Below, piece by piece: positions 21,001-24,000 of a DNA stretch of 64,000 nucleotides. The stretch is from Escherichia coli (GTDB taxonomy: Bacteria > Pseudomonadota > Gammaproteobacteria > Enterobacterales > Enterobacteriaceae). How positions within the stretch are numbered: the stretch's first letter is position 1; every line of letters starts with the position of its first letter. Position numbers: made by a program. Location: NCBI RefSeq assembly GCF_029227855.1, contig NZ_CP074357.1; one strand, written 5' to 3'.

Positions 21001-24000
21001 AGGATATCTGATTGTTCCCATGACCGATCACCGGCCATGCCGACAACACATCATAGTTTGGTGTAAGGTGATAACGTCCCTGTGGCCCAATAGAAATACT
21101 GAAATTTTTAGCGTGGCCATCTGTTGCGGCCATCATCCAGAAAATTATCTGCGTCATAAAAAACTGCGCTTTGTCACGCTCAGCACGGTCTGAATTACTC
21201 AGAACCTCCATAATTTCCGATATACCTGGCCCGCCGTCCGCCTGATATTTTCGTAATGGCGAAACGCCCAGGGCCTGACACATATCCTCCTGGGGTAAAC
21301 GAATGATCCATTGTCCGTCTCCTGACCATTTTCGGTCAAAACGTTCTACCACCAGCGCTTTCTGATCTTCAAAGTGAGCAATCTGCGTTCTTGCCACGGG
21401 GAGCCCGTACTGGCCGAGAAGTACCGAGCAGAGCCATTCATTTTCAACCGACGAGCTCATGTCGGCTTTCATGTTCCCCACAAGTCCGAGCGGTAGCTTG
21501 AATATATGCGTCGTTGGTGTATTACCCTCCGGCATACACCACCGATCTTCATGCCACAGTAGGGCTGTTTTCTCCTGAGCACCGGCAATAGATAAACGTA
21601 AGTCGTCGTTATCTTCTGGCCTGCCCGGTAGCAATGTCTCCGTGGTATTACGCAAAGTTGCCGCAATTTCTGATTCAGTAAGCGGGTGATACTTCACGGA
21701 ATATAAATCAGTGGGTTCATCTCCGTCATGAAGCAGCTGTATCGCGCCCACGCAGTCTTTTCCCAGCTCCGTCAGCAGATCAAAAGGCTCCAGGCTATCG
21801 GCCTTGTAACGCATTGCCAGACGTCTGCGTATGCCTTCGCTGTCCGGCAGTAAATTATCAAAATAGTCACGTACCACATTTCCACGCCAGACCTGGTTCC
21901 CGGGAGTAAAAGGAAGGGACAATGACAGCGGCCTTCCCTGTTCGTCAGCAACCCATTCAGGAAGGTATTCTAAGCTGTCTACCCCTTTGCTTTTTTCCCA
22001 GTACCCGACTTTGATGCCGTTCATCCAAATTACCAGACGTTGCTGTTTCCGGCTCATATCGTTACCAATCCTCCTGTCGTGCAGGTGAGTTTGATTTAAG
22101 CATTTCTTCCGTCTGCTTCCTCTCTGAAGAGGTGGTTGCCGAGGAGAAGCTGATTTTTACGCCCAGGATGGAAAACACCTTGAATAGCCGTTCAATGCTC
22201 GCACTGGCAGGGTTGGCTTCCAGACGTGAGTATGTCTGTTGAGTGACGCCTAACCTTTCGGACAGGTCTTTTTGCGTCAGGCCATTCGCCTTGCGAAAAC
22301 CAATGAGCAAGGGACGCAGCTGGTTGAGCGTGTTTAACGGGTAATCATTATTGATCATAAGCTGGCCTCAGTAGTTTCCTCTGATACACCTTGCAGGCTG
22401 TTTCCTAAACATACACCCTAAAAGCTGTAATATCAAATTAACAGCCTAAAAGCTGTTAAATAGGGCGTACAACTTTTAGGCTGTTACTATGTGGCAGCAT
22501 AAATCTTGTTAGCGATACAACTTTATTGTCTCATCGCTCCTCTTTGCAACCAGCTACATACGATCATAAGTGACACAACATTAATATGAAGCGACATTCA
22601 CCAAATGAACCTTCGTCATTTCAGATAGTTAGCTTACTTGCATGTCCTCATCCCATGAAGGGGAGGGCCTACCCATGGCATCGAGCAAAACTGACCACCC
22701 TGCCCTTATTAAGACCCCACATGCGGCAATGGTGCCCTGTCCACGCCGCCCGCGATTTTTGAGGAAATGGGAAGAAAATAAAAAGAAAACAAAAAGTTAT
22801 CGGCTGAAGTATCGGCGCAGATCGGGAATCAGGCGAAGCCTGACAGCACGTTGGGGCCTGGCAGGGGGCTTGAGGGATGAGGACATGCAACTCTGATAGC
22901 CTTCCCGCCACGGGATCGGTTAAATTCGTATCCGGCCGGTGCAATTCCAACGGCCGCGTTACCAGTTCGCCGGGTAGCATGGCCAGCAAAGCCAGGCATC
23001 GAGCACCCGGGTTTCACTAACGGCCGCTGCATAGACGCCGGTATCCGGAAAGAAATAAACCGGGGTGGCGTTGTTCAGCTGGTCGCCTTCATCGGCCAGA
23101 GCGCCGATCACCTCATGAGGCTTCAGCAGCATATCCGTTAAATATTCATCCGGGTGGATGGCATTCAGCGATATGGCCATCTCCAGAAATTCATCCAGTG
23201 TGTGGCGGGTACGATACCCCCGGAAAACCTCGTATGAAGGCGTGACGCATTCACCATCCAGGGAACAGGCATCGTACCCGGCCAGCTGCTCTTCGGTGAG
23301 TCCGGAGGCATGCTTTGCCACAAGATTCGTAAACTGCTCTTTATCGTCCATCACAATCCTTACGCTGTAGGGGCCTGTTTGTGTTATCACTGCTTCCGGA
23401 TTTTACATCGCACAACCCGGCAGGTATCCGGTCGCCCGGGCGTCCTTTGCGGTCATGTTAGCCTTTGGCCTGTATTACGACGAATCCCTTTCACTACACG
23501 GGCTCGCAGGGTGACACCTCCCCTTTTCACCGGAAGCGAAAGAGGAAGAACAGTTTAACAGCCCGGATCCTCAATAATTTTTGCATAACGGACTAAATGA
23601 CCGGTTTATGCAGCCCCTGTTACTTACTGTCGCGGTAAGGATAAAACCCTGGTTATGAAACAGAGTTTGTATCGACGTTTAGGTTTTGGTTGAATGAGTA
23701 ACTCTAAGCAACCGGAATATGACATGGCCAAAGTACAAGGGCTCTTTGTTGGATACCGAAAATTTGCTGTTGATCGCGAGTGGCTTCGGCAGCAGGAAGA
23801 ACAACGTTATCGGGATCGCCAGCGACAATTTGATGAATGGTCCAGAAAATGGGTCACTGTAACTAGGCTAAAAGAGACTCGTTTATGGACTGACGGAGCC
23901 ATCAGGCGATGGCTGGGTGAACCTCAGCAACAGGGTAAATATAAAGTTTTCCCCGTTGAAGCGGTTTTGGCTGCTGAGAAGTTGAATGAGTTTCAGCTCT

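Follow-up and report, generated by a model that had tools for sequence, protein, structure and literature searches.

A 253-bp element bounded by a perfect 17-bp inverted repeat lies in the 64-kb stretch of Escherichia coli DNA analysed here (the window), beside a gene for an orphan protein that we call X. Our best explanation, which we hold tentatively and at less than even confidence, is that it is a conserved, non-mobile, non-coding cis element belonging with X in the establishment/accessory region of IncH-type (MOBH) conjugative plasmids, and that it would act as a structured, untranslated part of the X transcript, either 3' or intercistronic. Plasmids of the IncHI1 and IncHI2 types confer multidrug resistance on typhoid Salmonella and have spread mcr-1 and carbapenemase genes, and roughly two-thirds of their genes are without known function. 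Few non-coding sequences of the IncHI backbone are as well conserved as the element, which occurs in about 1,450 sequenced plasmids, and no annotation or description of it was found in the sources searched.

The two arms in the window occupy 22638-22654 (TTGCATGTCCTCATCCC) and 22874-22890 (GGGATGAGGACATGCAA, the exact reverse complement) and are separated by 219 nt; the repeats and the 253-bp extent reported in the initial annotation were verified in coordinates and sequence. This is the sole long-range perfect inverted repeat of the window. The remaining perfect pairs of at least 14 nt have loops of only 4-16 nt, and about 0.0017 perfect 17-nt inverted pairs within 450 nt would be expected by chance in 64 kb. 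No second copy of the 17-mer is present in the window with up to 3 mismatches allowed. On one side of the element is hipB (22062-22358, minus strand), and on the opposite side is X, a 130-aa hypothetical gene. Because both neighbours are encoded on the minus strand, the element stands downstream of X and upstream of hipBA in the sense of transcription. The hipBA genes have promoter-like and operator-like sites of their own, downstream of the element. The features are listed in Table 1, with sequences read on the X-sense strand.

Table 1. Coordinates of the element, its parts and gene X in the window
Feature	Coordinates	Strand	Remark
X-proximal arm (5' arm on X-sense strand, TTGCATGTCCTCATCCC)	22874..22890	-	perfect complement of distal arm
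Distal arm (3' arm on X-sense strand, GGGATGAGGACATGCAA)	22638..22654	-	between-lineage homology stops about 10 nt or less past the arm
Conserved pyrimidine-rich interior half	22761..22873	-	holds CCCTG, the small hairpin and the T-run
Invariant small hairpin TCAGGC-TTC-GCCTGA	22829..22843	-	6/6 stem pairs invariant in 15/15 sequences
Near-invariant T-rich run, core TTGTTTTCT	22761..22796	-	A-rich on plus strand
CCCTG on X-sense strand	22862..22866	-	invariant, 15/15; possible partner of CAGGG
CAGGG on X-sense strand	22735..22739	-	near-invariant, 14/15
Variable G-rich interior half (X-sense strand)	22655..22760	-	43-63% identity between lineages
Spacer, X stop codon to proximal arm, 68 nt	22891..22958	-	68 nt in eight lineages, 67 nt in L157
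Gene X, acidic 130-aa orphan, pI 4.3	22959..23351	-	WP_000341066.1, hypothetical protein

The element is a single-copy sequence of one plasmid group. Megablast placed it in 1,167 records at 1,167 places and blastn in 1,451 records at 1,451 places, one copy in each. The blastn search covered 72,556 plasmids and matched solely IncH-type plasmids (IncHI1, IncHI2 and related types) and three derived records, with no match in any IncF or IncI plasmid. The median copy number across 284 E. coli genomes is 1 per genome, and no diverged paralog exists in about 380 kb of IncHI backbone. The arm 16-mer was counted 119 times among 100,044 species genomes, where chance alone would give about 139 occurrences, and never as a pair outside IncH-type DNA.

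The linkage to X is equally strict. Orientation relative to X is constant, and the distance to the X stop codon is 67-68 nt in nine lineages, with X proteins down to 48% identity; all X orthologs of at least 48% identity have the element at this distance. The sequence of the 68-nt spacer is highly conserved within IncHI1 and IncHI2. The block that IncHI1 and IncHI2 have in common is exactly X plus the element, with outer flanks that are unalignable on both sides; past the distal arm, IncHI2, IncHI1 and the other lineages cannot be aligned with one another. The cargo beyond the distal arm depends on the lineage and may be hipBA (as in the window), a serine protease with a membrane protein, a 67-aa with a 401-aa gene, a 165-aa with a 289-aa gene, or a 173-aa gene. 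The element marks the boundary beyond which the accessory operons of the lineages differ. Three MOBF plasmids contain the element without X. The L126-type copy adjoins dsbA, X being absent, and its homology to the IncH copies begins and ends at the arms. It measures 242 nt, which is 11 bp shorter, and 11 nt of its T-rich run are deleted; the L157 copy is 3 bp longer. In plasmid R27 the deletion Del15 spans the element and leaves the plasmid viable and stable, so the element is not needed for replication or stability. A role as incC or as a stability determinant was rejected, since the stability locus of R27 maps elsewhere and Del15 is stable.

An alignment of 15 homologous sequences was used for comparison. 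The proximal arm retains 88-100% identity between lineages, even where identity of the X proteins is down to 48%. The L126 arms, TTGCATGCCATCATCCC and GGGATGATGGCATGCAA, have two pairs altered on both sides with 17/17 still paired, and those of L157 have one compensated pair, giving compensated changes at 2 pairs and in 3 cells over the two lineages. No uncompensated change occurs in the central 15 pairs, and the covariation observed was reached in only 2 of 500 shuffles. To judge from this alignment, selection that keeps the two 17-nt arms complementary is probably the best explanation. The outermost pair in L134, L154 and L157 is C:A on the sense strand, equivalent to a G.T wobble on the opposite (plus) strand. 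Only 2 of the 17 arm positions ever change, while the distal half falls to 43% identity. This invariance goes far beyond what base pairing would demand and speaks for recognition of the sequence itself, something not expected of a simple RNA stem.

The two interior halves differ in conservation, the proximal half having 73-87% identity between lineages compared with the lower range of the distal half (Table 1). The arms and the proximal half are evidently under purifying selection, as far as the alignment can tell. On the X-sense strand the proximal half is composed of C 30%, T 37% and G 17%, and its plus-strand GC skew of +0.33 to +0.41 is a local extreme. The distal half contains 1-nt indels, yet G makes up 27-40% of it in every lineage and its plus-strand GC skew is -0.24 to -0.30; the sense-strand polarity of composition is retained even where the sequence diverges. 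The small hairpin varies solely in its loop, which is TCC in L153. RNAalifold paired CCCTG with columns 159-163, and because CCCTG does not vary, its pairing with CAGGG is neither supported nor refuted.

Both strands fold better than shuffled controls. DNA folding gave -51.8 and -52.7 kcal/mol for the two strands (z = -2.5 and -2.9), and the sense strand of the copy in the window gave z = -2.96 and -4.35 in two separate analyses. The sense RNA has a mean advantage of 9.4 kcal/mol over the antisense, present in 12 of the 15 homologs. This advantage reflects composition, because it vanishes as a z-score; the composition-controlled values are inconsistent in strand preference, and assignment of the strand by folding energy was dropped. 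Pair 52:68 (G.U in 11 sequences, A-U in 2, G-C in 1) and helix 47-50/79-82, with an invariant U.G, are valid on the sense strand only. Co-adaptation of the two interior halves was rejected by a chimera test, in which swapping distal halves between lineages cost nothing (p ~0.47). Interior long-range pairing had no covariation in the 15-sequence alignment, and compensatory base-pair change holds for the closing stem, not for the interior. The earlier option of a long structured RNA is supported in part, in that the arms covary and both strands fold beyond shuffles, and not for long-range pairing of the interior. Between a folded RNA, a folded single-stranded DNA and paired protein sites on duplex DNA, the data partly support a structured nucleic acid and reach no further.

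No intrinsic terminator is predicted between X and the element or inside it, and no sigma-70 promoter was found between X and the element or within it on either strand. Inspection by eye of the two arms in every lineage revealed no conserved TANNNT. Of promoter parts the element has only an A-tract, a potential UP element. The window also has a sigma-54-like TGGCAG-N5-TTGAG, which was discarded, as by eye it is not conserved in L147, L126 or L157. Rfam 15 gave no meaningful match, E values as high as 10 yielding nothing but noise from eukaryotic snoRNA and miRNA families, and a literature search on the arm sequence, IncH sRNAs and IncH ssDNA promoters found nothing relevant, nor any transcriptome data for the locus.

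The X protein has no match in Pfam, NCBIfam, PHROGs or PADLOC, and its relatives amount to only 25-28 matching protein clusters in libraries of billions. Its structure prediction has a pLDDT of 65, and a fold search returned X's own family only. Distant homologs of X occur in a T4SS operon, in islands of anti-defence-type genes and next to MOBH relaxase genes, and genes for ArdB, ArdC, RadC and ParB_N also adjoin them; relatives of X are neighbours of relaxases and anti-restriction genes. The element is absent downstream of the distant homologs in L170-L175, L178 and L179. X is acidic (pI 4.3) and unlikely to bind DNA. The proposal that X is MobI and the element an oriT or MobI-type accessory site was rejected: R27 carries a mobI of its own beside the 757-bp oriT gap at 108,150-108,906, about 44 kb from the element, which excludes X as MobI.

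The explanation that we tentatively prefer places the element in the RNA of X. Because the spacer and the element itself hold neither a terminator nor a promoter, transcription is expected to read through from X. RNA polymerase would leave X without meeting an intrinsic terminator and transcribe, in order, the 68-nt spacer, the proximal arm, a C/U-rich and G-poor stretch, a G-rich stretch and the distal arm. The C/U-rich stretch, which carries the invariant small hairpin and the U-run, resembles a Rho-loading (rut) site. Pairing of the arms would close the interior of about 220 nt as one domain, and what becomes of the 3' end of the X message may depend on this domain: Rho could terminate transcription there, a nuclease could process the 17-bp helix, or the message could be stabilised. 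The domain would also shield the conserved X from the cargo operon of the given lineage, which in the window is hipBA. We infer the co-transcription with X, the formation of the fold in RNA and the role of the fold, whereas conservation, single copy number, linkage to X, covariation of the arms, polarity of composition and the lack of coding, promoter and terminator signals are observed. Known structures that control or process 3' ends include the RNase III stalks flanking rRNAs, the lambda sib retroregulator and Rho-dependent terminators with C-rich rut sites. Like them, the element has long-range pairing of sequences that flank a segment; it directly follows a stop codon without an intrinsic terminator, and an untranslated stretch rich in C and poor in G comes next. 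The arms of such structures are merely complementary, whereas those of the element are invariant in sequence, and its interior has invariant motifs. Invariance of the arm sequence, unsupported interior pairing, the C:A outer pair, the X-less MOBF copies and the lack of an Rfam match all speak against an RNA role. A variant that we consider distinctly doubtful is either that a plasmid ncRNA is cut from the X transcript at the 17-bp stalk or that the element founds a conjugation-specific class of single-strand signal for MOBH/IncH plasmids. In the latter version the T-strand hairpin would be read without canonical sigma-70 boxes, for example by the plasmid's own Toprim primase or another factor, and would prime complementary-strand synthesis or launch early expression of the cargo.

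The main rival is possible, if doubtful: a single-stranded DNA hairpin on the strand transferred in conjugation, acting as an Frpo/ssi-like promoter for the downstream cargo or as a priming or recognition signal for the complementary strand, in a new MOBH/IncH class. At least three classes of ssDNA promoters are known, without mutual sequence similarity (PMC11541004, PMC9849209, PMC12672017). The Frpo/ssi sequences of IncF and IncI1 plasmids share with the element a large non-coding, intergenic stem-loop of about 250-330 nt, a position upstream of same-strand small-gene operons in an establishment/anti-defence-type region, and vegetative dispensability (PMC11541004, PMC9849209, PMC12672017). 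The element has the matching size (about 250 nt), a long closing stem and a location among same-strand small genes; its DNA folds beyond shuffles on both strands, and its dispensability in vegetative growth would suit a role confined to conjugation. The context agrees, with distant X homologs adjoining the relaxase, ArdB, ArdC, RadC and ParB_N genes named above, umuDC, an orphan cytosine methyltransferase, a nuclease and H-NS lying in R27 between oriT/Tra1 and the element, and toxin-antitoxin genes such as hipBA being typical leading-region cargo. From the 757-bp oriT gap the mobI-traI-traD operon runs in the direction of low coordinates. If F and SXT are a guide, the plus strand would be the T-strand, and X, the HNH genes and the cargo would all be templated by it; unless the plus strand is the one transferred, the orientation of the element does not suit a leading-region role. 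The conserved half with its UP-like A-tract would then be the non-template arm read by sigma and the variable half the template arm, and the terminal C:A of the sense strand would be a plus-strand G.T wobble in three lineages. Against this, neither arm has a -35/-10 pair on either strand (by scan and by eye) and none is conserved, while the Frpo/ssi sequences have reconstituted -35/-10 boxes and recurrent copies, neither of which the element has: it is single-copy, with no paralog in about 380 kb of IncHI backbone. It lies about 44 kb from the oriT gap in R27, far past classical leading regions, and the polarity of the IncH T-strand is itself deduced. Moreover, hipBA already possesses promoter-like and operator-like sites beyond the element, the constant distance of 68 nt from the X stop codon is given no role, and no similarity to IncF or IncI sequences is seen at blastn sensitivity. 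An unlikely reading is that one sequence-specific protein, of the plasmid or of the host, binds duplex DNA at both arms, which would serve as identical sites of opposite orientation with their centres about 236 bp apart, the A/T-rich middle allowing the DNA to bend or loop; they might be an inverted Ter-like pair for a plasmid Tus-like protein, as in the R6K terminus, or a looped operator pair for the cargo operon. Near-invariance and parallel change of both arms are exactly what half-sites of one protein predict, and the 11 bp missing from the L126 copy equal one helical turn, but the 3 bp added in L157 are out of helical phase. The invariant A-rich centre contains, by eye, a near-consensus IHF candidate site, AAACAAAAAGTTA, with one mismatch to WATCAANNNNTTR, which we take to be the IHF consensus. 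IncH plasmids have a gene for a Tus-like protein, and the search of the IncH backbone examined for a canonical Ter core was negative. R27 tolerates deletion of the element, and of the Tus-like gene, and remains stable; such dispensability is common among Ter systems. A Tus-Ter pair was nevertheless rejected, as the arms have no similarity to the Ter core GNRNGTTGTAAYKA and match TerB at 9-10 of 23 positions, a chance level. The R6K terminus shares two oppositely oriented sequence-specific sites, dispensability, and a Tus protein that is used there and encoded here (PMC10331603), but its sites are tens of bp apart rather than 219 bp, lack resemblance to these arms in the Ter core, and do not account for the structured interior or the linkage to X. 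Duplex sites would leave unexplained why a 113-nt half is conserved, why the small hairpin is invariant, why composition is polarised by strand and why the spacing to X is fixed; X, with its pI of 4.3, is an unlikely binder, and no candidate binding protein was identified.

The initial annotation had offered a miniature transposable element or an IS remnant, and this origin, in which a transposase left terminal inverted repeats that are now immobile and functionless, is very improbable and largely refuted. MITEs and enterobacterial intergenic repeats (ERIC/IRU) are short non-coding segments bounded by inverted repeats. The element shares with them an intergenic, non-coding segment between inverted repeats, possibly co-transcribed with its neighbours; its perfect 17-bp ends, the L126-type copy whose homology is bounded by the arms in a different context (dsbA, no X), and the covariation that transposase-bound ends would also be expected to show would fit such an origin. 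These repeats are dispersed, whereas the element is present once per replicon in about 1,450 plasmids and in the 284 E. coli genomes, at one place per record in both searches rather than in multiple copies with variable flanks, and without a paralog in about 380 kb of backbone. Its arm 16-mer is at chance frequency in the species genomes and is never paired elsewhere, its arms are compensated, and its linkage to X at 67-68 nt is maintained through divergence to 48% protein identity; purifying selection on the arms and the proximal half is unlike a dead remnant. As the earlier reading had stated, no flanking direct repeat is seen: target-site duplication is absent and the flanks differ in the window, IncHI1, L004 and L126, where only an ambiguous palindromic AGTACT / CTTACT occurs. 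No precise empty site was found, the relatives of the L126 flanks sharing only dsbA. The MITE and IS-remnant options are therefore set aside: the sequence is single-copy everywhere and fixed in place behind X. An invertible switch of the fimS kind, in which a recombinase such as a backbone tyrosine recombinase flips the 219-bp interior and toggles the downstream operon, is exceedingly improbable. fimS and the invertons of gut bacteria are invertible promoter switches, with which the element shares inverted repeats (17 bp here) around about 200-300 bp (about 220 bp here), an A/T-rich IHF-like centre, a position upstream of an operon, and a tyrosine recombinase on the replicon, conserved 3.5 kb off in IncHI1-type backbones (L127) and about 24 kb off in the window. 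The inverted junction at 80% coverage or more was found in 0 of 1,167 plasmid records, against an intact native junction in 1,358 of 1,376; the interior has the same orientation relative to X at every locus with flanks, and no interior promoter is present in either orientation. The element thus lacks the flipped allele of such switches in 1,167 assemblies, and it also lacks their internal promoter. Coding for a small protein, whether by the plus-strand basic ORF of 84 codons or as a short sense-strand peptide, can be given almost no credence. The 84-codon basic ORF noted at 22642..22896 is indeed present and open in the window, with a pI of 11.0, and a TTG-initiated frame, LFSFYFLP..., recurs in most lineages, but the 84-codon frame is broken by frameshifts, indels and stops in IncHI1 and further lineages. 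The sense-strand frames vary in length or vanish (L126, L153) and have no Shine-Dalgarno sequence, substitutions are nearly all non-synonymous in whatever frame, and a protein-family search gave no match.

Should an establishment role prove true, as a ssDNA signal or as an RNA for an establishment gene, the element would extend Frpo-type early expression to MOBH plasmids and offer a defined target against their spread. Were it only a 3'-end control structure, it would be a tidy, ordinary addition to plasmid RNA biology. Similar perfect arms also occur at the marine loci L148-L150, where they are the ends of convergent paralogous genes and unrelated to the element.

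The 253-bp inverted-repeat segment, hereafter the element, is very probably a functional, non-mobile and non-coding component of the IncH plasmid backbone, evolutionarily tied to the adjacent orphan gene X, with two arms selected for both their sequence and their mutual complementarity. On re-examination of the sequence, the perfect 17-bp inverted repeat of the initial annotation is present where it was placed, and is the sole long-range perfect inverted repeat in the 64-kb window; the remaining perfect pairs of at least 14 nt are short-loop hairpins. No third copy of the 17-mer occurs in the window with up to three mismatches allowed, and about 0.0017 such inverted pairs are expected by chance. 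The 84-codon basic ORF is likewise real, and no flanking direct repeat is seen in the window or in the other copies compared.

The window represents an IncHI2 backbone, 99.9% collinear with pHS13-1-IncHI2 from 16.5 kb onward. Among plasmid records, the 253 bp were found in 1,167 by megablast and 1,451 by blastn, at one place per record without exception, and they occur in 284 of 5,426 complete E. coli genomes (median one place). The carriers are large plasmids, mostly conjugative MOBH, and identity of the element is 94-100% in IncHI2, about 80% in IncHI1 (including R27 and pHCM1) and about 85% over part of its length in the IncHI1B/pNDM-CIT-like group. Searching ~380 kb of IncHI1 and IncHI2 backbone with a profile HMM of the element revealed no diverged second copy. 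An exact scan for the arm 16-mer in one genome from each of 100,044 species gave 119 single matches in unrelated phyla, against ~139 expected by chance, and no paired arms among them. One copy per replicon and conservation in place, the outcome that the initial annotation itself gave as grounds for refutation, refute the proposal of a MITE or IS remnant, which, with the flanking direct repeat also missing, is essentially excluded. The same can be said of an inverton, as a synthetic flipped junction was covered in 0 of 1,167 records; intact native junctions number 1,358 of 1,376. A coding role is essentially excluded as well: no reading frame is conserved across lineages on either strand, the 84-codon frame is broken by frameshifts and stops in IncHI1 homologs, and substitutions are nearly all non-synonymous whichever frame is read.

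Coordinates of the element, its neighbours and the other features discussed
Replicon	Feature	Position	Strand	Remark
Window	Distal arm	22638-22654		TTGCATGTCCTCATCCC; exact reverse complement at the proximal arm, 219 nt between
Window	Proximal arm	22874-22890		
Window	84-codon ORF	22642..22896		pI 11.0
Window	hipB-hipA	22358..20732	minus	neighbour of the element
Window	X	23351..22959	minus	130-aa hypothetical; neighbour of the element
Window	hipB upstream region with direct repeats (TACACC..GCTGT)	22385-22491; 22563-22590		three repeats, inside 23-33-nt imperfect inverted repeats
Window	Sigma-70-like promoter matches (two)	22590 to 22563; 22436 to 22408		
Window	HNH-endonuclease modules	16716-17897; 19125-20363 (overall 16,716-20,363)	as hipBA	each with a small hypothetical gene before it
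Window	113-aa hypothetical	23,724-24,065	plus	divergent from X
Window	Tellurite-resistance (ter) region	~25,200-45,200		~20 kb
Window	Extra segment	45,965-47,918		~1.95 kb
Window	Direct join	~50,703-50,709		
Window	Tus-like protein gene	~51,536-52,498	minus	
Window	Imperfect palindrome	60,900-60,947		A/T-rich, 23 nt; GGTTATCTTATCAATACAATTTT / AATATAATATTGATAAGATAACC, 2-nt gap
R27	Gap beside mobI	108,150-108,906		757 bp
R27	Del15 interval	150,566-156,499		
R27	Element	152,165-152,416		
R27	X	152,485-152,877		
R27	Stretch compared with the window's ter region	152.9-154.3 kb		
R27	Tus-like protein gene	162,022-162,981		
L126 plasmid	Element	3823-4064		
L126 plasmid	dsbA	4109-4768		
L126 plasmid	Perfect canonical Ter core	6853-6866		near IncF-type repA
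L170/L171 loci	Distant X homolog	3001-3414		
L175 locus	Distant X homolog	3001-3411		
L179 locus	Distant X homolog	2501-2896		

On the X-sense (minus) strand, the X stop codon is followed by a 68-nt spacer, the proximal arm, a conserved half of 113 nt, CAGGG, a variable half of 106 nt and the distal arm. The conserved half carries CCCTG, an invariant hairpin (TCAGGC-TTC-GCCTGA) and a T-run with the core TTGTTTTCT. IncHI1 and IncHI2 can be aligned over X and the element and no further (~23375 to 22630, 90-100% identity), the outer flanks on both sides being unalignable; immediately inward of the distal arm, identity drops to 40-60%, and it is restored at the arm itself. Every X ortholog found at 48% identity or more has the element behind it in the same orientation. 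Across fifteen distinct element sequences from plasmids, metagenomes and read assemblies, the length is mostly 252-253 nt, with 242 nt in L126, a Citrobacter amalonaticus MOBF plasmid, and 256 nt in the most distant lineage, L157, a 227-kb metagenomic contig. Eight lineages have a 68-nt spacer and L157 one of 67 nt; the window and L157 are 88-94% identical in the arms, 73% in the proximal half and 43% in the distal half. Composition polarity is also conserved on the X-sense strand, where the proximal half is 67% pyrimidine with a C/G ratio of 1.3-2.3 and the distal half is ~35% G even without sequence conservation. The element is the strongest local GC-skew switch in the window, and X is near zero.

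Substitutions inside the arms occur in two lineages, L126 and L157, and every one is compensated. L126, found by BLAST via the interior and one arm, has the arms TTGCATGCCATCATCCC / GGGATGATGGCATGCAA, in which T-A became C-G and C-G became A-T with pairing kept at 17 of 17 positions; L157 shows a change of C-G to A-T. The 15-sequence alignment holds zero uncompensated changes in the central 15 pairs, fraying being limited to the outermost and innermost pairs, and the observed covariation score was matched by 2 of 500 shuffles. The search pattern that recovered L157 and the other metagenome loci fixed 11 of 15 positions per arm, so that their arm conservation is partly imposed, whereas the compensated positions were free. 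The small hairpin stem and CCCTG are invariant in the 15 sequences and CAGGG is kept in 14 of them, so that neither the stem nor the CCCTG/CAGGG pair is informative on pairing. Tail-to-tail paralogs are able to mimic inverted-repeat-bounded elements, as seen in marine metagenome contigs L148-L150, where the two-arm pattern also caught 242-nt inverted repeats; these were rejected as copies, since two convergent paralogous genes, with 144-aa open frames, form the repeats at their 3' ends.

The structured RNA offered by the initial annotation survives in part: arm complementarity is kept by compensation, but interior co-adaptation between the halves was not found. Both strands fold better than dinucleotide shuffles (window DNA z = -2.5 and -2.9, RNA z = -1.5 and -3.0), with z from -2.3 to -4.9 in eight lineages. 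Folded as RNA, the X-sense strand has the lower energy in 12 of 15 homologs (mean advantage 9.4 kcal/mol). This advantage is absent from the z-scores and therefore reflects composition, a G-rich half standing opposite a pyrimidine-rich half; as DNA, the strands are equal in stability in the 15 homologs. Swaps of the distal half between lineages had zero energy cost (double-centred residual -0.04, p about 0.47), so the halves are not co-adapted per lineage and long-range interior pairing is predicted only. The wobble evidence on the strand conflicts. Only the X-sense strand permits pair 52:68 (G.U in 11, A-U in 2, G-C in 1) and a short helix that holds an invariant U.G, and the outermost arm pair in three lineages is C:A on that strand and a G.T wobble on the opposite one.

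Our tentative first choice is that the element acts as RNA, as a structured and untranslated 3' end of the X message, given the co-orientation, the constant stop-codon spacing, the lack of a terminator, a rut-like C-rich then G-rich stretch and the 17-bp closing helix. This helix could serve as a target for RNase III or as a barrier to exonucleases, and the variable cargo genes beyond the distal arm would be uncoupled from X by the structure. Neither a sigma-70-like promoter nor an intrinsic terminator was found within the element or between X and the element, and Rfam gave no match even at E = 10. Ranked second, and rather improbable, is a T-strand (transferred-strand) hairpin of the Frpo/ssi kind, the ssDNA promoters of IncF and IncI leading regions (PMC11541004, PMC9849209, PMC12672017). 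The element's size and genomic setting suit this reading, as does the asymmetry of conservation: the non-template arm would be the conserved half, where the A-tract lies. Since three unrelated classes are already known from IncF and IncI plasmids, a further one on MOBH plasmids would be unsurprising. However, -35/-10 boxes are absent, and the element is single-copy and far from oriT. Paired protein sites on duplex DNA, an unlikely third, account best for the invariance of the arm sequence but worst for the remaining features.

The geometry of R27 bears on transfer. A 757-bp gap separates its Mpf genes from a minus-strand series, mobI, an ORF, the MOBH relaxase gene and traD, that extends towards lower coordinates; as R27 thus has a separate mobI beside the gap, X is distinct from MobI and the element from the known oriT. 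In F and SXT, the relaxase or mobI side enters last, and by this analogy we infer that the plus strand would be transferred. The 44 kb from oriT to the element, with umuDC, an orphan cytosine methyltransferase, a nuclease, H-NS and HNH genes, would then be the leading side. Leading-region genes are templated by the T-strand, and so would be X, the HNH genes and the cargo if the plus strand is the one transferred. Tassinari et al. 2016 (PMC4853401) made deletions of 5-7 kb that together took in all non-essential R27 DNA; Del15, whose interval spans both X and the element, was obtained without reduced stability, and stability loss was confined to Del16, mapping to incC. Replication and vegetative maintenance thus do not require the element.

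In form, the element is like known cis-acting hairpin elements, and the defining tests of each specific family considered went against it. The arms show no likeness to Ter, and the canonical Ter core GNRNGTTGTAAYKA is absent from the ~250 kb of IncHI1 and IncHI2 backbone examined. Among the IncH backbone genes is one for a Tus-like protein, annotated as DNA replication terminus site-binding, and L126 has a Ter core of its own. Literature searches returned nothing relevant on IncH ssDNA promoters, IncH sRNAs or the arm sequence. We found no description of the element, which is absent from Rfam and unannotated in ~1,450 records, save occasional "hypothetical protein" calls beneath the match.

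The cargo varies by lineage: hipBA in the window, and elsewhere a serine protease with a membrane protein, 67-aa and 401-aa genes, 165-aa and 289-aa genes, or a 173-aa gene. Promoter-like sites and operator-like repeats lie downstream of the element, before hipB; they look like a hipBA promoter with HipB operators, and the element is thus not required as the hipBA promoter. The tandem HNH modules follow downstream of hipBA on the same strand, and the same pairs are found in IncHI1 and pNDM-CIT-like plasmids. In three MOBF plasmids, L126 included, the element is present without X and ends 44 nt before the dsbA start. Homologs of dsbA elsewhere have different upstream DNA, and in these plasmids the gene may be expressed from or through the element.

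X itself has no match in Pfam, NCBIfam, PHROGs or PADLOC, and its relatives form only 25-28 clusters among libraries of billions of proteins. Its structure is predicted with modest confidence, and a fold search yields its own family alone. The element is absent beside the more distant X homologs at the loci examined. One such homolog, in an island with an integrase, follows ArdB, ArdC and an RNase T-like gene and lies 5 nt upstream of a MOBH (TraI_2) relaxase gene; another is within an F-type T4SS operon (TraC-TrbI-X-DsbC-TraU-TrbC-TraN), and another in a run of small genes with RadC and ParB_N. These neighbourhoods point to X as a conjugation- or establishment-associated gene, and suggest that its family comprises uncharacterised conjugation or establishment proteins.

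The 113-aa hypothetical divergent from X has a weak PADLOC match to JetB/MukE-like DUF4194 (E = 7e-5, 40 residues only). Close to X in IncHI1, R27 and pNDM-CIT-like plasmids, at 0.5-1.5 kb, stand a 358-aa gene, hha and a tyrosine recombinase gene, from which X is separated in IncHI2 by the inserted ter region. Compared with pHS13-1-IncHI2, the window has an extra segment, probably an IS insertion into a 360-aa hypothetical gene beside hha; as a target-site duplication would, 5 bp at the junction (reference 45,960-45,964) match twice. Additionally, a direct join replaces the pap2 and mcr-1.1 segment of pHS13-1, so the window plasmid is without mcr-1 at that site. The A/T-rich palindrome toward the end of the window could be an operator or an origin-like site.
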